In this document: one piece after another, positions 3,123-63,872 of the stretch
Layout of the letters: every line of letters starts with the position of its first letter
Position numbering within the stretch: position 1 is the first letter of the stretch
Assembly (NCBI GenBank): GCA_045636465.1
Contig: JAZTXP010000069.1
Location: forward strand, 1,112-65,111
Direction: 5' to 3'
DNA: 64,000 nt
Origin: Eubacteriales bacterium
GTDB lineage: Bacteria; Bacillota; Clostridia; Oscillospirales; CAG-272
The notes under the pieces: model-generated
The model's input: the letters and a program-made list of their open reading frames with translations, nothing else
What the model was told of the DNA's origin: nothing
Databases searched by the model: none
Translations under genes and position numbers: made by a program

Positions 3123-3587
3123 TTATTTTGTTGAATTACCATCATTAAAATTATCGTTTTTCTCTATGATTTTATTTAACTTTTCAGTCTGCTTTTTCAT
3201 TATTACATAAATTATTCCCCACACTAATAAATAGCCAAAGACAAAAATAAGTGTAAATACTATGAATGGAGTCATTCCTGATTTCAACCATCCGTTCACA
3301 AAATATACAACGGTATACGCAACATAAAGAATCAAACCGTGAGAAAAAATCGACCATATAAGCGGAAGCTCTTCAATCCGGTAAAGTATTGTAATGCCGC
3401 CGGAGATGAATGCCAAGAGAGTGATTGATATGATGCCAATACACATCTCAGAAACCGAAACGCTTACGACAACGCCCGAAAGTCCAAGTATAGTATATAT
3501 TATCGCCAATACAATTGGGCCGAATCCCATAGCCATAACACCTCTTAAAAGAAAATCCTTATGATACCGTTTAATAATTGATTTCAT
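3123..3587 (-). CDS. Small multi-pass membrane protein (DUF3021-like partner of a LytTR regulator)
   Basis: 154 aa with about 4 hydrophobic helices. It overlaps the upstream LytTR gene by 4 nt, which is the usual LytTR+DUF3021 pairing. Confidence 0.6.
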   Translation of the reverse strand: MKSIIKRYHKDFLLRGVMAMGFGPIVLAIIYTILGLSGVVVSVSVSEMCIGIISITLLAFISGGITILYRIEELPLIWSIFSHGLILYVAYTVVYFVNGWLKSGMTPFIVFTLIFVFGYLLVWGIIYVIMKKQTEKLNKIIEKNDNFNDGNSTK

Positions 3588-4024
3588 ATATTATACCTCC
3601 TTTTAATATTTGCAAAGCAACGCCTGGAAACGTATTCCTTATAACCGCACTTAAACACGGCATCCACTGCTCCACTGAAAGCAGTTTTGTAGCTTTTTAT
3701 CCGGTTTTCATTTGCAATTGATGATTTGTTTATACGAATGAAATATGAAGGCAAGCCGGGTTCTATATCGCAAAGTTTTTTATTTGTTCTGTATTTCTTG
3801 CCGTCTGCGCATATCACATATACCTTCCTGTCGATTATAGTCATACACTCAACATCCGGAAGATCAATGCGCTTTATCTCATCTTCATTGTAAACATAAA
3901 GCCCGCCTTCCCCGCTCTCTTCCGCAACCATTTTCTCAATTTTGACGGTTAATTCGTTGGCAGAATGTGCATAAACAATTACTTCTTCGTCCTTTTCTTT
4001 ATCTATGATCAGACTGAATTTCAT
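3584..4024 (-). CDS. LytTR-family DNA-binding protein
   Basis: YFIRINKSSIANENRIKSY...VSRR pattern typical of the LytTR domain. The start is set at ATG 4024 (MKFSLII) with an AAAGGAAA SD. Confidence 0.7.
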   Translation of the reverse strand: MKFSLIIDKEKDEEVIVYAHSANELTVKIEKMVAEESGEGGLYVYNEDEIKRIDLPDVECMTIIDRKVYVICADGKKYRTNKKLCDIEPGLPSYFIRINKSSIANENRIKSYKTAFSGAVDAVFKCGYKEYVSRRCFANIKRRYNI

Positions 4025-5090
4025 CCATTTCCTTTCCGATTCCCAGCACGGCAAACCTCATGACAGGAATCCTTTTTATTATTTCGTTTAATATCAAAGT
4101 TGCTATCAATCCAAGCGCGGCTGTCAATACGACCTTTCCCCATAATGGAATACCGATATAAGTATAAAAATAGTATCCTATGTATACCATGCAGGGATAA
4201 TGCAAAACATAATAACCAAAGGAATTGCTCACAAAATATGATGAAAGCTTGGTTTGCTTGTTGCAGTATTTCTTAAATAGCCCAAGCATAGTCAGAGACA
4301 TCGACCATGCGTAAAAATTGGTGATCGGACTTTTCAAAACCGCATCGCTTACATAGTTTTTTCCTGCATAAAGGCAGAAATATACAACTCCCAAAGTTAT
4401 CGATGCAATAAGATTTATATGTAATGCTTTTTCTGTTCTTTCTATGATCTCATCGTGGGAAAGAATAAAATATCCAATGAGAAAGCTTGCAAAATAAATA
4501 CCGATTCTATACGTTGTAATAACCGGCATATTCAATATTTGTGCGCTTACATAGATTGCTAATCCGCCAAGCGAAAACAGTGCTAAGTAAGGAGGCTTTC
4601 CTCCCAGTTCATATAGTTTTTCTTCTGCTTTAGAACATGATATTGTTGATATTATCACCGCATACAGAAATGCCAGATGCGCAAACCATAACGGCCCGGA
4701 TCCGCTTAAAACGGATATTGGATAAATAAGAAAAGGTGGGATGTATTCAAGTCCGCCGCCGATTTTAATGTACAGATAACCCGTTACCCAGTGCAATACA
4801 AAAAGCCCTATAGTTGACGGTACTAAAAGTTTTTTCGCTCGTTCGTGCAAAAACCGCTTTTTGCCTCTTTTTTGCAGTGAAAAACGCGCGACAATTCCCG
4901 ATATCATAAATAGCAGGACCATAAACCAGGGATATATCAATGAGCAGAATGCATCAAATATAAAAACTCCCTCATCTATAGAAAATCCTCCGGGAACACC
5001 GACACCGTTGAAAATATAGCATGCGTGATAGATGATAACCGAGATAACCACGAATACTCTTAGGTTATCTAAATAGTTTTTTCGCTCCAT
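3999..5090 (-). CDS. Acyltransferase-3 family integral membrane protein
   Basis: N-terminal YLDNLRVFVVISVIIYH motif and about 10 hydrophobic segments. The start is ATG 5090 with an AGGAG SD. Its 3' end overlaps the LytTR start by 26 nt. Confidence 0.7.
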   Translation of the reverse strand: MERKNYLDNLRVFVVISVIIYHACYIFNGVGVPGGFSIDEGVFIFDAFCSLIYPWFMVLLFMISGIVARFSLQKRGKKRFLHERAKKLLVPSTIGLFVLHWVTGYLYIKIGGGLEYIPPFLIYPISVLSGSGPLWFAHLAFLYAVIISTISCSKAEEKLYELGGKPPYLALFSLGGLAIYVSAQILNMPVITTYRIGIYFASFLIGYFILSHDEIIERTEKALHINLIASITLGVVYFCLYAGKNYVSDAVLKSPITNFYAWSMSLTMLGLFKKYCNKQTKLSSYFVSNSFGYYVLHYPCMVYIGYYFYTYIGIPLWGKVVLTAALGLIATLILNEIIKRIPVMRFAVLGIGKEMDEIQSDHR

Positions 5091-5215: not shown

Positions 5216-6097
5216 TTATCGGGACATCTTAATATCTGTCAAATGATTTGACAGTATAACGAATTCTTCTGTGGAGAGGCGCTCACCACGGATTTTAGGA
5301 TCGAATCCCGATCTTGAAATCGCCTCGGCAACATCCTCCTTAGAGAATCCTCCAAGCTTTGCGCTGAGCGCATTTTCTAATGTTTTCCTTCGCATCTCGA
5401 AGGCGGCCTTAATGCAATTTCTGAAAAGCTTTTCATCCTTGATATCAAAGGGGCATTTTTCATAGAGATCAATTCTGACAACTGCGCTATCTACCTTTGG
5501 TGCCGGCACGAATGAGCCTGCTGAAACCTTAAAGAGCTTTCTGACAGTACCGTAATAGCCCAAAATAGCGGTTATGGCGCCGTAATCGGATGAGCCTGCC
5601 TTAGCAGAAAGCCTTTGCGCAACCTCATTTTGAACCATAACGGTTATAGAAGAGAATTTGGCACCGGATTCTAAGAGATGCATAAGAATGGGCGTAGTAA
5701 TATAGTAAGGAAGGTTAGCGCATACGGAAACGGGCTTCCCTTCTGCATAACACTCTACAAGCTCCCCGATGTTGATTTTCATTACGTCCTCGTTTATTAC
5801 AGTGACATTATCAAATTCAGCCAAGGTTTTTTCGAGAATGGGTATCAAGCCCTTATCGATTTCAATAGCAACGACCTTGCTATATCTCATTGCAAGTTCC
5901 TGAGTGAGGCAACCGATACCGGGGCCTATTTCAATTACGAGTCTATCAGAGGTGTCCGCACAGTTCTCTGCGATTTCCTCGGGGATTATTCTGTTTGTTA
6001 AGAAATTCTGTCCGAATTCCTTGCGGAAGGTTATTCCCGCATCGGACATCAAGGACTTGATTGTAGAAAGATTACATAAATCCATAAGCTTCTCCAA
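5216..6097 (-). CDS. rsmA: 16S rRNA (adenine1518/1519-N6)-dimethyltransferase RsmA/KsgA
   Basis: KEFGQNFL motif, EIGPGIGCLT SAM-binding motif and NLPYYITTPI motif. Confidence 0.93.
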   Translation of the reverse strand: MEKLMDLCNLSTIKSLMSDAGITFRKEFGQNFLTNRIIPEEIAENCADTSDRLVIEIGPGIGCLTQELAMRYSKVVAIEIDKGLIPILEKTLAEFDNVTVINEDVMKINIGELVECYAEGKPVSVCANLPYYITTPILMHLLESGAKFSSITVMVQNEVAQRLSAKAGSSDYGAITAILGYYGTVRKLFKVSAGSFVPAPKVDSAVVRIDLYEKCPFDIKDEKLFRNCIKAAFEMRRKTLENALSAKLGGFSKEDVAEAISRSGFDPKIRGERLSTEEFVILSNHLTDIKMSR

Positions 6098-6153
6098 ATA
6101 GCCGAAATAAGAAAAAGACTGTCACAAACAAAAATCCGGACAGCCATTTCGAT

Positions 6154-6229
6154 GGAGCTGGTAAGGGGACTCGAACCCCTGACCTGTTGATTACGAATCA
6201 ACTGCTCTACCAACTGAGCCACACCAGCA
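6154..6229 (-). tRNA. tRNA-Thr (anticodon CGU), CCA encoded
   Basis: Reverse complement reads GCTGGTGTGGCTCAGTTGGTAGAGCAGTTGATTCGTAATCAACAGGTCAGGGGTTCGAGTCCCCTTACCAGCTCCA. The cloverleaf folds by eye, and the anticodon loop TTCGTAA gives CGT. Confidence 0.93.
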
Positions 6230-6363
6230 TAATCGCTTAATTATTGTAACACTTTTAGCCTTGTTTGTCAATAGATTTTGAATAAATATTTGGATTTATT
6301 TGTTTGATGATAACCTGATATCGGGCATTTCATATAATACAACTATATAATCTACGGAGGTAT

Positions 6364-7401
6364 ATGATGGAAACAAAATATTTTGCTTCTGCCAATAGCT
6401 ATAATGGCTTTTACAGCCTTTTTGGCAGTATTTTTGACTCGAGAAGATTTGATAACGTTTTCGTCCTCAAAGGCGGGCCGGGCACGGGAAAAAGTACGCT
6501 GATGAAAAAAATCGCCGATTTTACAAAAAGCAAAGGAGGGCAAACGAAGCTATACTACTGCTCATCCGATATAAACTCTCTTGACGGTGTCATAATAAAT
6601 ATAGACGAAAAGCACTTTGCCATTATTGACGGTACGGCGCCCCACGAAAGAGATGCTGTTTTGGTAGGAGCTATAGATGAGATAATAAATTTAGGCGATA
6701 GCATTGATCGAGATTGGATAAGAGGACACAGGGATAATATAATAAGCTTGTCGAAGCAGAAATCCGAGGCCCACAAGGCAGCATACTCATATTTAAGAAT
6801 CGCAGGAGCTTGCTACGAAGAGATATATAAAAAGAATCTTTCAGGCTTCAGTGCTTATTCTGCCTCAAAATTTATAAGCGATTTGCCTATTAATACCAAT
6901 TTTATCGAGCAAAAAACAGAAAAGACCTTTATATCCTCGTTCAGCAAAGTGGGGTATAAAACTTTTCAAATATCGAATGATAGTTATAACAAATCCATCA
7001 AAATATGCGGAGACAAGACTAATATAAAAATTCTCTTGGAATATATAAGTGATATATTTGAATATGGAGATGCGAAAATCTTCCCTTCTCCATTAAATCC
7101 GGATCTACCTGAGGCTTGCATAATTGACGGTTGCCTTATTATAGGTACGGACAACGATTCTTCTTCAACCGACTCCGCCAAATTTTTTGATACATCAAAA
7201 ACAGATAAAGAAGAGGTTCGCCTTATGAAAACGATTCACGATGACGCGCTTGAGGAAGCATCAAGATGGCTTTCCATAGCAGCCGACATTCATTTTCGCC
7301 TCGAGGATATATATACGAAATGCATGAATTTTGAAAATAATGAAGCTATTTTCGATAAAATCTGCAAAAAAATACTTAAAGTTTGCGAATGTGACAACTA
7401 A
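6364..7401 (+). CDS. Conserved uncharacterized P-loop ATPase (resembles the Bacillus/Clostridium PRK06851-type family)
   Basis: Walker A motif LKGGPGTGKSTLMKK, then CSSD..SLDGV and IIDGTAPHERD motifs. ATG 6367 may be the true start (GGAGG sits 6 nt upstream). Confidence 0.6.
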   Translation: MMETKYFASANSYNGFYSLFGSIFDSRRFDNVFVLKGGPGTGKSTLMKKIADFTKSKGGQTKLYYCSSDINSLDGVIINIDEKHFAIIDGTAPHERDAVLVGAIDEIINLGDSIDRDWIRGHRDNIISLSKQKSEAHKAAYSYLRIAGACYEEIYKKNLSGFSAYSASKFISDLPINTNFIEQKTEKTFISSFSKVGYKTFQISNDSYNKSIKICGDKTNIKILLEYISDIFEYGDAKIFPSPLNPDLPEACIIDGCLIIGTDNDSSSTDSAKFFDTSKTDKEEVRLMKTIHDDALEEASRWLSIAADIHFRLEDIYTKCMNFENNEAIFDKICKKILKVCECDN

Positions 7402-57790: not shown

Positions 57791-58663
57791 ATGAATAAAA
57801 GCATCAAAATTGCGTTATATTCCGTGCTAAGCCTGGCTTTAATTGCGTTTATTGCACTATGTGTTTTATTATCCTTAGGATATAGATTCTCTCCCGAGGC
57901 TGCGGTGCACGAAATCTATAGGGATAATACTCACATTCATACCGATGAATATGACTTTTATCTGAACGACGTGATGAATGATAATGGCAAGCCCGGTTAC
58001 TCTGACGGCCACATTGCGGTTAAAAGATATGGATTTCTGTATAAGCAAATTGAGGAGTTAAATGCCGACGGCAAGACTCATTCCCTTCTTGTTGACGGAG
58101 ATGGTGCAATTGCCAATATGTATTCCTACCAAGGCAAGGAGCAGACATATCATTTTATTCATTGGTGTGGCTACACGGTTGAAACTCCCGAGGAGGAAGA
58201 CGGATCAACTCACGTATACTTAAGATATTGGACAGATAAAATTATTCTCAACGGTCAAGAAAAAAATCTTTATCTTAATTGCTACTTTGTTACCGATGAG
58301 CCTATTGAAAGCTTAGTTGTTAATGATGTTCACGCGTATATTACACATGGATTTTCAATGGGCGATTATTGGAATGACGAGCAGGTAATGGTTGTCGATA
58401 ATGTGGACGATCTCAATGCCGAACAGTTAAAGTCTCATTACGATAACGGTGGCATTATTGTGGTTCGAAATATATCGCTTGCCGATGAGGTTCAGATAAT
58501 TATTAACGGTCGTGTAACTGCAAAAAGCAGCGAGGAAAATCTTGTTGCTGTATTTTGCAAGAGCAAGTCAGGTGCGCTATATGCAGGATTCGTTCAAGGC
58601 GGTAACTTTGCTTTAGAAAGCGAAATCGATGAAATGGTAGAGTTGGCAAAGGAAAAGCAATAA
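57791..58663 (+). CDS. Hypothetical membrane-anchored protein (290 aa)
   Basis: AGGAGG SD. N-terminal TM anchor (IALYSVLSLALIAFIALCVLL), and the remainder is soluble. No motif I recognise. Confidence 0.5.
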   Translation: MNKSIKIALYSVLSLALIAFIALCVLLSLGYRFSPEAAVHEIYRDNTHIHTDEYDFYLNDVMNDNGKPGYSDGHIAVKRYGFLYKQIEELNADGKTHSLLVDGDGAIANMYSYQGKEQTYHFIHWCGYTVETPEEEDGSTHVYLRYWTDKIILNGQEKNLYLNCYFVTDEPIESLVVNDVHAYITHGFSMGDYWNDEQVMVVDNVDDLNAEQLKSHYDNGGIIVVRNISLADEVQIIINGRVTAKSSEENLVAVFCKSKSGALYAGFVQGGNFALESEIDEMVELAKEKQ

Positions 58664-58785
58664 ATAATCTTATAATTATAATACAAAAACCCGGCAATAT
58701 TATTGTTTTGCGATACAATAGTAAAAATCGACTTATTTGATTTTGATAAATTGACAAACATACTTTTCGAATGGGGAGAAGCTTA

Positions 58786-59415
58786 ATGCATAAGGTATAT
58801 GAAAATGATGATTTGATGATGTACTTTAAGAAAAGATATTGCCATTGTTGTGGAAAAGAATTGCAGAAGAAAAGATATGAAAGGATAGTTCGAAAGGGCG
58901 ATCCCGACCATAAAGCTTATTGTTCTATAGGAACCGGCTATAAACCACACGACGATATATTAGTCATAGGCAAAGAGTATTACTGCCCTTCGTGTAATAA
59001 AACCTTTTCATGTGATGAACAAGGGAAAGTAATTGAAGCGCAAAAATATTATCAAAAGAAAATCGTAACGGATGAAGAAATTAGCAATACATATAAGAAT
59101 GAGTTGATGATTTCCGGACAAAACATTAAAAAGTTAAGTTGGTTTTTATTGATTCCCATTATAGGTCATTTTATATGTACGTATTACATTTTCAATGGAA
59201 AGTTAAGCACTAAAACAACAAAGGGGGATTTACACCAGCTTACGATATCAGCTTTACTAGTTTTTATCGGTGTTGCGTTAATAGCAAAAGTAGTCCTTTC
59301 GATTTTTAACGATATTGACTTTATCAATAATTATCAATCAATATTTATATTGATACCGTCGTTAGTATCGTTTAACATTCCTTTGTTCAGATATATTAAC
59401 AATAATTTTGCTTAA
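58786..59415 (+). CDS. Hypothetical zinc-ribbon membrane protein
   Basis: CHCC...(about 45 aa)...CPSC cysteine pairs at the N-terminus and three hydrophobic segments at the C-terminus. The start is ATG 58786 after GGGGAG. Confidence 0.5.
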   Translation: MHKVYENDDLMMYFKKRYCHCCGKELQKKRYERIVRKGDPDHKAYCSIGTGYKPHDDILVIGKEYYCPSCNKTFSCDEQGKVIEAQKYYQKKIVTDEEISNTYKNELMISGQNIKKLSWFLLIPIIGHFICTYYIFNGKLSTKTTKGDLHQLTISALLVFIGVALIAKVVLSIFNDIDFINNYQSIFILIPSLVSFNIPLFRYINNNFA

Positions 59416-59536
59416 TTCAAGTAAATCGTAATACACGAAAATATCTAATGTAAAAGAAAAAACGAACTTTGAAAAATCGGAGTTCGTTTTTTTCATTCGG
59501 CGTGAAGGAAGCGAGCATGCTTTAACATAGATATTC

Positions 59537-59583
59537 TTGACTTAAAAATATTTTTGTGCTATAATTTTAATAGGATATATCCT
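59537..59583 (+). promoter_or_regulatory. Consensus promoter followed by a perfect 12-bp palindrome (candidate operator)
   Basis: TTGACT (59537-59542), 17-nt spacer, TATAAT (59560-59565). AGGATATATCCT lies at 59572-59583, about at the predicted transcription start. Confidence 0.55.
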
Positions 59584-59664
59584 TTACTATTATCATAGAA
59601 ATATTCAGAGGTGCGTTATTGCTATCTATAATGCGAGTGGCTATACCAAGGCTGAATACTGTTT

Positions 59665-60093
59665 TTGGGGGTGTTTTATTTGAATGATGTGGCTCTCATA
59701 TTGTATATTACAGGATTAGTAGGTCCGTGGATAATGTGCTTATCAGATTTATTTGGCAATAATTTTGACGCACATTTTTCCGATGATACATTAAGAAAAT
59801 TGAGAGTTAAAGATGACTCTTTTTTGCGTAAAATTATACCTCTTAAAGAGGGTAAACTCTTTAATAAAAAAGGGGAACAATATGGATATAGATACTATTT
59901 ATATCCTAGAGTATTGGCGCTATTTATCCAAAGCATAATCGTTTTATTAGGATTGATAGCATTAGCTATACATTTTCTCTTGGTACCTTTTATATCTAAT
60001 TCAGCTTTTCTTATTATAGGACTAACATCCCTTGGTATATGGGCAATATATATATCAATAATAAACATAGCATCTCAAGGATTACACTTATAA
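59665..60093 (+). CDS. Hypothetical multi-pass membrane protein
   Basis: Only non-ATG starts are available (TTG 59665, GTG 59671, TTG 59680 after GGGGGTG). It has 3-4 hydrophobic segments. Confidence 0.4.
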   Translation: MGVFYLNDVALILYITGLVGPWIMCLSDLFGNNFDAHFSDDTLRKLRVKDDSFLRKIIPLKEGKLFNKKGEQYGYRYYLYPRVLALFIQSIIVLLGLIALAIHFLLVPFISNSAFLIIGLTSLGIWAIYISIINIASQGLHL

Positions 60094-60103
60094 AACCGTC
60101 TAT

Positions 60104-60625
60104 TTACACGACGTTGGTATCGAAGTCAACATCTTTAATTTGAATGTGCATCAAGCTACGCTGTCTTACACCGGTTGAAAACAAAAAATTCGTCATAACC
60201 CAACACTGGTATTCGGTAAAGGAGCATTTCTTAAGGTTAGGTTTCTCGAGAAGAAGTTTTAGTTCTGCCTCGCTATAAGTTTCAATTTGAGATTTATCTA
60301 CCTTAATGGCTTGCATTTTGAATCGAGGTATTAAGCCTTCGTTCATGAAGAAATGGAGTGTTGTTATAAGGTCACGGAGATAAGAGTTTATGCAGATGTC
60401 GTTATTCAATGTAGATTTTAGGTGTAGGACATAATCTTTGTAGGCATTTTCGGTTATATCTTCTATTGGCATTTTGGGATCGAAGTATTTATAGAACTGG
60501 GCGTAACTCTGTTTGTAGTGGTTGATAGTTCCCTGCCGGAGATTCCTCTGCCGGCAGCTCTCGAGGTACTTGTTGCAGCCTTCTTCAAAGGTTAAAGTTG
60601 TGCTTGTCATTTTCAGCTTTTTCAT
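60104..60625 (-). pseudogene. 3'-truncated tyrosine recombinase/integrase (N-terminal SAM-like domain plus the start of the catalytic domain only)
   Basis: MKKLKMTSTTLTFEEGCNKYLESCRQRNLRQGTINHYKQ... continues to ...NFLFSTGVRQRSL (first catalytic Arg) and stops about 20 codons later. The His-Arg-Tyr part of the catalytic domain is absent. Confidence 0.7.
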
Positions 60626-60966
60626 TGTAAAAATCCTTTCTGAATTTGTATTGAAATTTATATAAAAAACTAGACACATCACAGAGGATTTCTCCAAAAT
60701 GATGTGTCCAACTTTTTTATTATGTTTTTGTGCTTTAAGGATTTTTACAAGGGATGATTTGAAGATTTTGTTTTTAAACGAATCAAAGCAAATCTTAAAT
60801 TATCTAGTATAAATCAAAGCAGAAATGCAAATCACTTGCGGTTCAAATTGTTTTTTGAGTGTACAGATTTTGAGGGATAAGCGTCGTTCTTGCGACCGAA
60901 GCAATAGAAACCTATTGCGAGCTTGTCGAAAAACGGCGGTTAGCACCAAAATATGCCCGCAAAAAA

Positions 60967-61086
60967 TTATTTGGAAGCTTCTTCGATTGCTACTGCAACA
61001 GCAACAGTCATACCAACCATGGGGGTGTTACCTGCGCCGATGAGACCCATCATCTCTGTGCTGACAGCATTTTGAGTATTTTTGTC
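60967..61086 (-). other. Short open frame / probable gene remnant ending ...EMMGLIGAGNTPMVGMTVAVAVAIEEASK
   Basis: About 39 in-frame codons bounded by an upstream stop. It reads like a hydrophobic C-terminal tail of a larger protein. No SD is seen. Confidence 0.25.
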
Positions 61087-61451
61087 CTATGAATCGTTTA
61101 GTAGTAAACCTCAAAATGCTAGGCTTGTTTTGCAGCGGTTCCCTGCTTTTGCTGTAAAATCCTTTTCGCTGAACACATCGTTTTCAGTTTTGCTGACTGC
61201 ATTATATCGTGTTTCAATGTGTTCGCGAATAGGTTGTTTATAAAGTTCACAGGATGTTTGCAAATCCTAATCAAACTCTCTATGGCAAGTATTTACGCTA
61301 TATTGTTATTTTACCTTCCAGCTTTCGTTTTTCTTGCTGCCGGGTCTATGTATATTAACTTTTACGCCAAAATCGCAACGTCCGCAAATGTCTCAAAATC
61401 AGGAATCTTTTTCAAGAAATCAAAGTTTTTTCATTAATATCCTCCAATGTG

Positions 61452-61904
61452 CTATTGCAAACTGTTTATTTCTTCTTCAGTTATACATGTATCTACATCT
61501 AATTTTTCAAGTTGTTCATACGGAACTATCTGATCGCTTTTATACATTTCTTTTGATATTACTATAGAGATTAAATAGCCAAACAACAGCATTAAAGAGA
61601 TTATTGACAACACAATAACAAAAGAAATCCAGGGTTTTCTTGTATTATCCCCACAGAATATAGATAAAAGATATCCAACTGTCAAACATATAAATGAATA
61701 TCTTGTTAAAATAATCTTTTGTGCGTTTTTCTGAAGTAGTCCTTTATCAATTATACAGTTATTGTTTTTGTCTCTTAAAGCAATATTACTACCAGGAAAA
61801 CACATTTTTAATGCATTTTCTCTTATTTTCGTAAAACATCCAAATGAAAGTATAATTGATCCTGCCAATTGAGCTGCTATCGAAATTTCATAAATCAAAT
61901 TCAT
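61452..61904 (-). CDS. Hypothetical membrane protein (about 150 aa, 3-4 hydrophobic segments), third gene of the AbiH-like operon
   Basis: ATG 61904 lies 8 nt after GAGG. Hydrophobic stretches are IAAQLAGSIILSFGCF, YSFICLTVGYLLSIF and WISFVIVLSIISLMLLFGYLISIVI, with an acidic C-terminal tail. Confidence 0.6.
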   Translation of the reverse strand: MNLIYEISIAAQLAGSIILSFGCFTKIRENALKMCFPGSNIALRDKNNNCIIDKGLLQKNAQKIILTRYSFICLTVGYLLSIFCGDNTRKPWISFVIVLSIISLMLLFGYLISIVISKEMYKSDQIVPYEQLEKLDVDTCITEEEINSLQ

Positions 61905-61937
61905 AAATCTTACCTCACATAGCATTCTTACATCATA

Positions 61938-62147
61938 TTAAATACGATTTGCATCGTAAATAGCATATCCAATTGATTTTCGATTATCGATAGCTACTTT
62001 TTTAATTTCATCAAGCACTTTTTGAGTCTCTATATAATTTTGAGCGCTCTTTTTTGATTCAAAGTAAGATGTGACCATTGAAACTATAGCAAGGGCGATT
62101 GATATAACTCCAATTATTAAAGACCATGTATTTATATCCATATACAT
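61938..62147 (-). CDS. Hypothetical single-pass membrane protein (67-69 aa), second gene of the AbiH-like operon
   Basis: GGAGG SD. N-terminal TM helix WSLIIGVISIALAIVSMV, then a charged helical tail. It starts 17 nt after the upstream stop. Confidence 0.6.
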   Translation of the reverse strand: MYMDINTWSLIIGVISIALAIVSMVTSYFESKKSAQNYIETQKVLDEIKKVAIDNRKSIGYAIYDANRI

Positions 62148-62164
62148 TAACCTCCGATAAAAGA

Positions 62165-63274
62165 TTATTTCATAACAAAAGTTTTGGGTTCGTATGTTTC
62201 TAAGGGATTGAACTCTGTTGATTCTTTTAATGTATGTGGTACAATCTCTTTAAAAGAAAAATTAAACAGCTTTTTGCCGATAGGAATATGTATCTGCTCT
62301 AGAACTGAATCATCGTCTATTTGTAGTTTCTTCAATAATTGGACTTTAATCTCATCTTCAACATCCATAATTTGATCATAATTATGCGGGTCTATGATTG
62401 GAGTATTATGCTTATAGAACACAAGATGATGGTTTTTATCTTTCTCTAACCAATCTGAAATCAACCAAACCCAGCTATTATCAGATTCTCCCATCGAAAA
62501 GCCATAAACACATATAATAGAGCTGTCCATTATAGCCTTTCTTGCGTTTTCGACTCTTGTGTTGTCAAATTGCTTATTGAAAAGAGTCTTGATAAAAGCT
62601 CGTTCGCCTTTTTTTGTAATTTTATACTTGATCTCCATCAACTGATCCGGATCGTCAACACCTAGCACAACATCCTCGCCAAGTTTTCCGTGTATGTGAA
62701 TAGGAGTATTTTCATAGATAAGGCTACTTTTAAAATTAATATTCAAAATAGCCTCTAATGACATTGTATAATTAAATGTTATATAATTACGAACAATAGT
62801 GTTTTCTCCAATTACAGATTTGATTTGTGTTATATCATTTGGTATGAGTCCATGGTAAAATTCATTAAACGAACGATTAACCTCTTGGTGAAATGCACGA
62901 TTATTAGCAATATTTCCAAACTGCTCCAATATTTTTTTATTTTCTTTTTCCAAATGTTTCACCATGAAACCCTTGAAATCTCTAACACATTCTACTAACT
63001 CGTTTTCTGTTTCAAGTGTTTTAGCATAAGATGCCATTCCCATTTCAAAGTCAGACCAGTTTTCATAATTGTTATTCGCTTTTGACTTTAACTCTTTTTT
63101 GAAATGAGCAATAATATCTGATGATGATTGGGATTTTATATAGTCATCGTACACATCTGTATATTTAGTTTTCATTTCAAGCCCCAAGTCTAAACCATTG
63201 CCAAATATAAACGTGATTTTACATTCCTTCGAGATGTTTTTTGTATCGACAAGTTGTATTGTTTTAGGTTTCAT
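62165..63274 (-). CDS. AbiH-like abortive-infection family protein
   Basis: Three colinear motifs as I recall them for the AbiH family: N-terminal ITFIFGNGLDLGLEMKTKYTDVYDDY, central TPIHIHGKLGEDVVLGVDD, and distal SIICVYGFSMGESDNSW. SD is GAGGTGA 6 nt before the ATG. Confidence 0.65.
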   Translation of the reverse strand: MKPKTIQLVDTKNISKECKITFIFGNGLDLGLEMKTKYTDVYDDYIKSQSSSDIIAHFKKELKSKANNNYENWSDFEMGMASYAKTLETENELVECVRDFKGFMVKHLEKENKKILEQFGNIANNRAFHQEVNRSFNEFYHGLIPNDITQIKSVIGENTIVRNYITFNYTMSLEAILNINFKSSLIYENTPIHIHGKLGEDVVLGVDDPDQLMEIKYKITKKGERAFIKTLFNKQFDNTRVENARKAIMDSSIICVYGFSMGESDNSWVWLISDWLEKDKNHHLVFYKHNTPIIDPHNYDQIMDVEDEIKVQLLKKLQIDDDSVLEQIHIPIGKKLFNFSFKEIVPHTLKESTEFNPLETYEPKTFVMK

Positions 63275-63369
63275 TCGTTTTCACCTCACCCAAAGTATTT
63301 TTGCATTAATTATTTTTCGAGAATTTCGAGCTTTTCAAGACTCTTTTTAATAAAATTTTGTTTTTCCTT

Positions 63370-63398
63370 ATTATACCACAAAATCTGACCAATTGCAA
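63370..63398 (-). promoter_or_regulatory. Sigma-A promoter of the AbiH-like operon
   Basis: Minus strand: TTGCAA, 17-nt spacer, TGG-TATAAT (extended -10). Confidence 0.6.
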
Positions 63399-63509
63399 CA
63401 TTTATGAAAACAACTCGAAAAGACAATTATTATTTATTTGCTAAATTATATAGGGTGATAATCCGGTGCTCTACTATTGCTCAATATAATTTTTGAAGGT
63501 GGATTAAAT

Positions 63510-63872
63510 ATGGATAATAAAGAAAATGAGGTTAACAAGGTCACAGAAACACTAAAGAAGGAACTAGAGAGCCTCAGTTCAGAGGGATTACATGAGTTCT
63601 TTAAGTTCGTGTATAAAATGAATCACGTGCATGGGAACATGATGGCAGTTGATCAGTTTGAAGAGTTTTTAGAGGCTTTTGATAGTAATCCTTTTAAGGT
63701 GAATGAAGACAAAGGCTTTAGAAAGCAGCTGATAGAAAATATTATAAAATATTCTCAAGATCATATGAGTTTAATAACTGCTGCCCTGCTTATAAAGAAG
63801 AAATTTACTATTGAAGAGCTTGCTCAAAATTACTACTCAAGTGTAGATTTATTTGATGGAAATTGGTATTAA
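63510..63872 (+). CDS. Hypothetical protein (120 aa), divergent from the AbiH-like operon
   Basis: ATG 63510 after GGTGGA. Helical, with no TM segment and no motif I recognise. Confidence 0.45.
   Translation: MDNKENEVNKVTETLKKELESLSSEGLHEFFKFVYKMNHVHGNMMAVDQFEEFLEAFDSNPFKVNEDKGFRKQLIENIIKYSQDHMSLITAALLIKKKFTIEELAQNYYSSVDLFDGNWY

Follow-up and report, generated by a model that had tools for sequence, protein, structure and literature searches.

Intact AbiH and two small membrane-protein genes between hsdS and hsdR remnants: probable surviving cargo of a decayed type I restriction-modification operon

The stretch analysed here, referred to as the window, is 64,000 nucleotides (nt) of contig JAZTXP010000069.1 (positions 1,112 to 65,111) from an Eubacteriales bacterium. 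Near its right end, one AbiH gene and two genes for small membrane proteins, named TM1 and TM2, follow each other on the minus strand. The AbiH gene (62165–63274) is full length and encodes 369 residues. The open reading frame (ORF) of TM1 (61938–62147) is 69 residues long from its first ATG, and that of TM2 (61452–61925) is 157 residues long. Because of the positions of the Shine-Dalgarno (SD) sequences, the N-termini in the family alignments and NCBI's own calls (P0122, 67 residues, for TM1; P0121, 150 residues, for TM2), the most likely starts are Met3 for the 67-residue TM1 and Met8 for the 150-residue TM2 (61452–61904). The gaps between AbiH and TM1 and between TM1 and TM2 are 17–23 and 12–33 nt, respectively; GGAGG/GAGG-type SD sequences are present ahead of all three genes, and there is no terminator-like hairpin between them. 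The three genes look co-transcribed. An earlier, sequence-only reading of this DNA had described three same-strand ORFs with tight spacing and one SD per gene; strand, coordinates, spacing and SDs were all found as described.

The same reading placed the three genes under one promoter. One promoter-like site, TTGCAA-17-TGGTATAAT, is present at 63398–63370 (10 of 12 positions matched, with a TG extension and TATAAT as the -10 element). It lies inside a 60-bp promoter region (63369–63428, minus strand) that is 82% identical to positions 423–482 of L036, where it is located upstream of a DUF2971 gene (L numbers denote loci that we fetched from genomes, metagenomes and assemblies). However, promoter-like motifs are not enriched in this AT-rich stretch (19 found, 17.9 expected by chance), so the motif alone is no proof of a promoter.

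The three genes are bracketed by two remnants of a type I restriction-modification (R-M) operon, a feature overlooked in the sequence-only reading. Directly upstream of AbiH, tblastn and blastn identified the 3′ remnant of hsdS (63287–63355, minus strand), which comprises the last ∼21–25 codons and an in-frame stop. It is 76% identical to HsdS residues 345–365 by tblastn and 78–85% identical to the hsdS 3′ ends of at least 10 loci by blastn; it reads ...KKSLEKLEILEK*LMQKYFG*, compared to ...QKSLEKLEILKKSLMQQYFG* at intact HsdS C-termini, and the spacing from its stop to the AbiH ATG is native. Directly downstream of TM2, the same programs identified the 5′ remnant of hsdR (61335–61433, minus strand), with its SD, ATG and codons 1–33. 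It is 87% identical to HsdR residues 3–33 (tblastn) and, by blastn, 75–85% identical to the 5′ end of hsdR in many loci. The hsdR remnant has suffered a 1-nt insertion frameshift and an in-frame stop, reading NFDFLKKIPDFETFADVAILA*KLIYIDPAA compared to the HsdR N-terminus MTNFDFLKQTPDFETFADVAISAEKLIYIDPAAC, and the homology ends at 61335. No further similarity to HsdM, HsdS or HsdR was found within the 64-kb window, and intact R-M is absent in cis. Since both remnants keep the native junction spacing to the three genes enclosed by them, these genes occupy the cargo slot between hsdS and hsdR. The block appears to be the surviving cargo of a decayed type I R-M operon, from which deletions would have removed hsdM, the greater part of hsdS and nearly the whole of hsdR.

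The 369-residue protein is an AbiH-family, SIR2-like protein. It matches PF14253 (AbiH) well above the cut-off (99.3 bits compared to 30.9 bits, E = 5.1e-28), over profile positions 2–260 of 260, in agreement with the AbiH identity that had earlier been read from three motifs. In the protein database, 251 homologues were found at E ≤ 1e-3; among the matches listed, 120 of 120 homologues carry a precomputed PF14253 annotation. PADLOC, NCBIfam and PHROG scans of the protein gave nothing significant. In the alignment of its clade (42 sequences), G25-N26-G27, N168 (FNYT) and H193/H195-G196 (HIHG) are invariant or nearly so, and the window protein keeps all 42 invariant columns. The AlphaFold2 (AF2) model, built with 42 homologues as input, has a pLDDT (predicted local distance difference test) of 85.7 and a pTM (predicted TM-score) of 0.83. 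When the model was compared with the PDB by Foldseek, the first 26 matches were all defence SIR2 proteins; Sir2-HerA 8uae_B is at the top (E = 1.7e-4, prob 1.0, TM-score 0.43), followed by DSR2, SPARSA and ThsA. N168 and H195 follow β-strands in the model, as in SIR2, and may correspond to the catalytic Asn and His of SIR2, an assignment made from motif order and secondary structure rather than by superposition. In the literature, AbiH was assigned to the sirtuins and the SIRim clade by HHpred and AlphaFold (PMC13064643; bioRxiv 10.1101/2024.09.18.613514). By analogy, the 369-residue protein is probably an NAD+-consuming abortive effector. HSP82 matches, which came up when PDB sequences were searched with the profile of the AbiH clade, were spurious.

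We collected 25 distinct loci with AbiH homologues, which share 36–84% identity with the window protein. In 20 of them, hsdS and/or hsdR flank AbiH on the same strand, and the usual gene order is hsdM, small gene, hsdS, AbiH, hsdR. In the closest relatives, L028 (84%), L012 (83%) and L009 (72%), hsdR starts ∼20–30 nt past the AbiH stop. Of the 15 resolved hsdS-hsdR slots, 7 contain AbiH and no other gene, and the others hold varied extra genes, including PD-T4-7 (L029, 290 residues), a PD-(D/E)xK-like protein and second, divergent AbiH paralogues (L005, L007). A further cargo of this slot type is DUF2971 (PDC-S31 in PADLOC), which L036 carries and of which L053 retains a remnant; independent defence genes, or candidates for them, accumulate in this slot. 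By tblastn, and by HMM and jackhmmer searches over the 4026 ORFs of all fetched loci, a TM1 or TM2 homologue was found beside AbiH in none of the 25 loci, the 84%, 83% and 72% identical ones included. The proposal that the window encodes a new AbiH variant with membrane effectors therefore fails on neighbour conservation: the TM genes are not conserved neighbours of AbiH, and both occur without AbiH elsewhere. The earlier remark that catalogues list AbiH as a single-gene system was correct, and the comparative data agree with it.

TM1 is predicted to contain one N-terminal transmembrane (TM) helix and a charged C-terminal tail, as had been read from the sequence. Among 5.8 billion proteins it has one relative cluster only, with 63% identity. 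SLATT_1 gave 15.4 bits (E = 0.014) against TM1, under the 41-bit cut-off; PADLOC, NCBIfam and PHROG scans of TM1 returned nothing significant, and an IMG/VR scan with the TM1 DNA pattern returned nothing. The TM1 relative is found in L036, where it has its own TGnTATAAT promoter-like site and different neighbours, with no adjacent AbiH and no TM2 after it. It is located upstream of the conserved promoter block, which in L036 precedes DUF2971/PDC-S31 and a 323-residue gene. We compared L036 (1–3322) with 60942–61265 and 63369–63428 of the window. The former segment, a 324-bp flank with no strand assigned, is 89.5% identical in L036. Since the promoter block and this downstream flank are common to both, the window locus and L036 are alleles of one island with different cargo, which suggests cassette exchange between conserved flanks.

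A word-indexed search had presented TM2 as an orphan, and this was overturned by a full HMMER search, which identified 147 representative clusters (50% identity) at E ≤ 1e-3 and 44 at ≤ 1e-10. The family is very uniform in length and shares the motifs FPGSN..RD..NN...K.KLQK.A..IYLN..AF..L..GY and, at the C-terminus, DVDT..T..EID. The AF2 model (pLDDT 87) contains three long TM helices; of the three to four helices proposed earlier, three are supported by TM prediction and model, and a fourth is not. The C-terminal tail folds together with the helix 1–2 loop into one small α/β domain, which is predicted to face the cytoplasm because K and R abound on that side. No match to TM2 was found in Pfam, NCBIfam, PADLOC, PHROG, PDB or BFVD, and Foldseek of the model gave no match at E < 1 in PDB and BFVD. 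In the PADLOC, NCBIfam and PHROG scans of the three window proteins, Wzz and DUF3181 also came up, below threshold, and were rejected. SLATT matches are weak and limited to 2 of 29 family members (best 0.034). Searches of phage and plasmid collections by tblastn, and of IMG/VR with the TM2 alignment, gave nothing.

TM2-family members were found between brxC and pglX of type 1 BREX in at least 10 places, with gaps of 8 and 5 nt, and between hsdS and hsdR of type I R-M in 10 places, with a DUF2971 remnant after. The family is also present in a conjugative element, where a CHAP-domain gene precedes it, and behind an insertion sequence (IS) OrfA-like gene, as judged from sequence. The family sites are L042–L051 (∼4001–4462), L053–L062, L032 (1205–1609), L052 (4001–4474) and L039–L041. 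None of the four TM2 contexts that were fetched independently of AbiH contains an AbiH gene. The embedding of this family in BREX and type I R-M is not described in the literature searched; TM2 is a reasonable guilt-by-embedding candidate, although the independent contexts behind it number only five. The 81-residue gene after the TM2 homologue in L053 was considered as a TM1 analogue and rejected; it is a C-terminal remnant of DUF2971 and contains no TM helix. One family member, P0151 (252 residues), has a C-terminal extension of ∼90 residues with extra hydrophobic helices and a charged tail, and loosely resembles a fusion of TM2-type and TM1-type proteins.

Taken together, the locus is probably a cargo block that survived the decay of its type I R-M operon and consists of a single-gene, SIR2-like AbiH and two independent cargo genes; we hold this reading with moderate confidence. 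In genomes of related Clostridia and Oscillospiraceae, the usual place of this AbiH clade is between hsdS and hsdR, where it is often alone. After the loss of the hsd genes, the cargo in the window would now be read from the promoter that also precedes other cargo in L036. AbiH would stay latent until a phage cue appears; once activated, it would consume NAD+ or ADP-ribosylate a target and thereby abort the infection, as DSR2, ThsA and SIR2-HerA do. TM1 and TM2 would be separate cargo stacked in the slot, sharing a transcript with AbiH by position only and not as obligate partners. More speculatively, AbiH could back up or guard R-M; in the window a guard role in cis is impossible because the R-M partner is gone.

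Several observations weigh against this reading. The match to the SIR2 fold is modest, and the profile of the AbiH clade gives no genuine match among PDB sequences. No AbiH mechanism is established in the literature (PMC13064643). The PADLOC AbiH model PDLC02345 does not match the 369-residue protein even at E ≤ 1. It matches 24 of the 42 clade members (best 6e-9), and because it does so while missing the window protein, the clade appears to be a peripheral AbiH clade at the edge of the model. The tight spacing and the lack of a terminator between the genes would allow lineage-specific functional coupling. One AbiH-bearing operon, L032, also has a TM2-family gene, although elsewhere, between Fic and hsdM. 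The sample of TM2 contexts is thin, with five independent ones.

Cargo between hsdS and hsdR has a precedent in the E. coli prr locus, whose order is hsdM-hsdS-prrC-hsdR. The link between this enzyme family and R-M has already been published: Makarova et al. (2012) described predicted Sir2-superfamily enzymes as AbiH components linked to type I R-M (PMC3506569), and the window AbiH is a further case. Payne et al. (2024) reported that genes are often embedded in the operons of BREX, DISARM and type I R-M; many of them are defence systems in their own right, and over half lack a clear function (bioRxiv 10.1101/2024.01.29.577857). TgvAB of Vibrio cholerae VPI-2 is an experimentally validated embedded defence (PMC11411939). 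Like PrrC/RloC-type genes, the AbiH clade sits between hsdS and hsdR, and like them and TgvAB, it would be a second-line or abortive gene within an R-M operon (PMC3506569; PMC11411939; bioRxiv 10.1101/2024.01.29.577857). Different from these, the window enzyme is SIR2-like, not an anticodon nuclease or GmrSD, and its R-M partner is lost.

Compared to AbiH of Lactococcus lactis S94 (PF14253; a single-gene system in DefenseFinder), the window protein shares the N-terminal GNGFD Rossmann motif and the sirtuin-like fold, which is published for AbiH (PMC13064643) and indicated by Foldseek for the window protein, and its clade behaves as a single gene in the comparative data. A single cloned gene is also sufficient for the activity of Streptococcus thermophilus AbiH against phages (PMC12322248). 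However, the window protein belongs to a distant clade missed by the PADLOC AbiH model, which occurs in gut Clostridia and typically in type I R-M, whereas the S94 kind is found in lactococcal integrative and conjugative elements. The SIRim NADases DSR2, ThsA, SIR2-HerA and SPARSA are its best structural matches; the candidate Asn and His would be at the positions expected from their fold, and AbiH has been put in the SIRim clade (bioRxiv 10.1101/2024.09.18.613514). Different from these NADases, the window AbiH has neither a fused sensor domain nor a partner (HerA, pAgo or ThsB), its TM-score to the nearest of them is as low as given above, and NAD+ cleavage is established for no AbiH (PMC13064643).

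Among the other explanations, the one that survives best makes TM2 an accessory of modification-based immunity, such as a membrane tether, a DNA-entry sensor or a regulator, whose window copy is orphaned and unrelated to AbiH. The very tight coupling of TM2 to brxC and pglX, together with its presence between hsdS and hsdR and between Fic and hsdM, is in line with such a role, and so are the conservation of length and motifs across the 147 clusters and the confident model with its conserved K/R-rich soluble domain. In the same lineage, one unrelated family of small membrane proteins, TMx, likewise sits between hsdM and hsdS. However, TM2 also occurs outside R-M and BREX, in the conjugative element and beside the IS OrfA-like gene, and the majority of BREX and type I R-M operons lack it. 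Embedded genes are, as a rule, systems of their own (bioRxiv 10.1101/2024.01.29.577857), and TM2 shows no homology to any characterised protein. We consider the accessory role rather unlikely. A broader statement is offered as a tentative proposal: TM2 would represent a new family, recurrent in BREX and type I R-M, whose small proteins combine three TM helices with a conserved mini-domain in the cytoplasm and act in defence at the membrane, either autonomously, by exclusion or abortive infection, or as an accessory that links R-M and BREX to the membrane; its window copy would have been stacked with AbiH.

It is less probable still that the three genes form one abortive system, in which the SIR2-like AbiH senses or signals and TM1 and TM2 damage the membrane. 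The arrangement itself invites this idea: the genes are closely spaced behind a single promoter-like site, each has its SD and no terminator interrupts them. Many defence systems also pair an enzyme with small TM effectors. In addition, the AbiH-bearing R-M operon L032 holds a TM2-family gene, and unrelated TM proteins adjoin AbiH in a few other slots (184 residues in L029; 169 residues with 5 TM helices in L035). Against it stand the 0 of 25 loci with TM1 or TM2 next to AbiH, the occurrence of both on their own elsewhere and the four independent TM2 contexts without AbiH. The TM2 model depicts a membrane-anchored small cytoplasmic domain and no obvious pore former, and the SLATT match of TM1 is below threshold. 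The likeness to CBASS, Pycsar and Thoeris-like systems with 2TM, 4TM or SLATT effectors, where one transcript carries a cytoplasmic enzyme and then small membrane proteins, is superficial: the window genes have no conserved pairing and no signalling enzyme, SLATT remains below threshold in TM1, and the TM2 fold matches no known effector.

Equally improbable, in our view, is that TM1 and/or TM2 provide autonomous defence or exclusion at the membrane, for example superinfection exclusion or an abortive pore, as single-gene passengers. The slot does gather independent defence genes (PD-T4-7, PDC-S31 and AbiH paralogues), the two small membrane proteins are encoded in defence-rich surroundings, and the family is not among curated housekeeping families; however, no match was found in the phage, plasmid and IMG/VR collections, where exclusion genes are common, and none in PADLOC or PHROG. 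It is very improbable that the block has lost all function and is only debris left by a dying R-M operon, with ORFs that are open but unexpressed or useless. In favour of this explanation, both flanking hsd genes are plainly pseudogenes or deleted, the integrase ORF nearby is cut short, there is a gene fragment on the downstream side and the promoter-like motif is not statistically distinctive. It is disfavoured because the three ORFs are full length for their families and keep every invariant residue while the flanks gained frameshifts and stops, and the promoter block is conserved in the allelic island L036.

If the cargo-block reading is true, the window provides a further case of a SIR2-like AbiH inside type I R-M, as noted in 2012, and of defence operons serving as landing pads ("guilt by embedding"). 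It would also show that passengers can outlive the host operon, with intact cargo ORFs standing between hsdS and hsdR stubs. Such orphan cargo blocks matter for annotation because stacked singletons mimic novel multi-gene systems. The well-populated AbiH clade, with N168 and H195 invariant, would offer a route to testing the AbiH NADase idea. The TM2 family, present in BREX and type I R-M and represented by no PADLOC, Pfam or NCBIfam model, is the second lead and the only fresh one.

The surroundings of the block fit the earlier description of an AT-rich island beside a decayed integrase. The GC content is 0.31–0.34 at 58–64 kb and ∼0.42 elsewhere in the window, and housekeeping genes (pyruvate kinase, OAD beta, esterase, SDR) stop at ∼57.7 kb. 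The integrase is a truncated tyrosine recombinase ORF of 197 residues (60104–60697, minus strand), in which Pfam finds N-terminal SAM-like integrase domains only. It is weakly similar (23% identity, E = 7e-5) to the recombinase of L009; because of this weak similarity, it may be a relic of an hsdS-shuffling recombinase and not of a mobile-element integrase. The L009 tyrosine recombinase (3353–4348) lies between a full and a partial hsdS, just upstream of AbiH, an arrangement typical of phase-variable hsdS shuffling. Within the flank shared with L036, there is one C-terminal fragment of a membrane-protein gene (∼60977–61075, minus strand; AVSTEMMGLIGAGNTPMVGMTVAVAVAIEEASK*), which is followed by a terminator-like hairpin (60948–60934). 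Its 81-bp core is 77–89% identical to coding DNA near the ends of two unannotated 'Bacteriophage sp.' records, MT836003 and MT837192. The flank is not a known RNA but holds this gene fragment; the Rfam scan of 57–64 kb yielded a chance-level PGK match only (E = 0.8). On the plus strand, the island ORFs at 57791–60093 and 63477–63872 encode four products of 290, 214, 142 and 131 residues, with no Pfam or PADLOC match and no homologue in any fetched locus. The 214-residue product contains CxxC pairs and C-terminal hydrophobic segments, and the 142-residue product is largely hydrophobic.

The AbiH-carrying R-M operons sit in dense defence islands. The hsdS-hsdR slot is a cargo hotspot in this R-M lineage (L029, L035, L004, L005, L007, L008, L021), and several of the proteins in it are unknown. 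The TMx family has the N-terminus MAKKKEKPQxINNIxELNLEIDYDKLAEAI, followed by several TM helices, and is encoded in L012 (3095–3571), L009 (1601–2179), L003 (3343–3915), L004 (3338–3769), L028 (66–539) and L032 (3153–3752), in the AbiH-carrying lineage; a distant homology to TM2 was ruled out (hhalign probability 1%). HEPN-like small proteins are also encoded between hsdM and hsdS, in L009 (1099–1599, weak Pfam HEPN match) and by one 171-residue gene in L054–L058. In L012 and L032, hsdM is preceded by Fic-domain genes; L012 additionally has SEFIR/TIR and PARG-like genes past hsdR.

No consistent recurrence of a downstream TM gene was seen among distant relatives of AbiH encoded on viral contigs (21–27% identity). 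In L090, a viral contig with 21% AbiH identity, a three-TM ORF of 152 residues (6015–6473) starts 4 nt past the AbiH stop; the TM2-family HMM does not match it, and the case is isolated (one of the 16 viral loci inspected). Going by sequence only, the TM ORFs near the viral-contig AbiH relatives resemble lysis-cassette or spanin-type genes.

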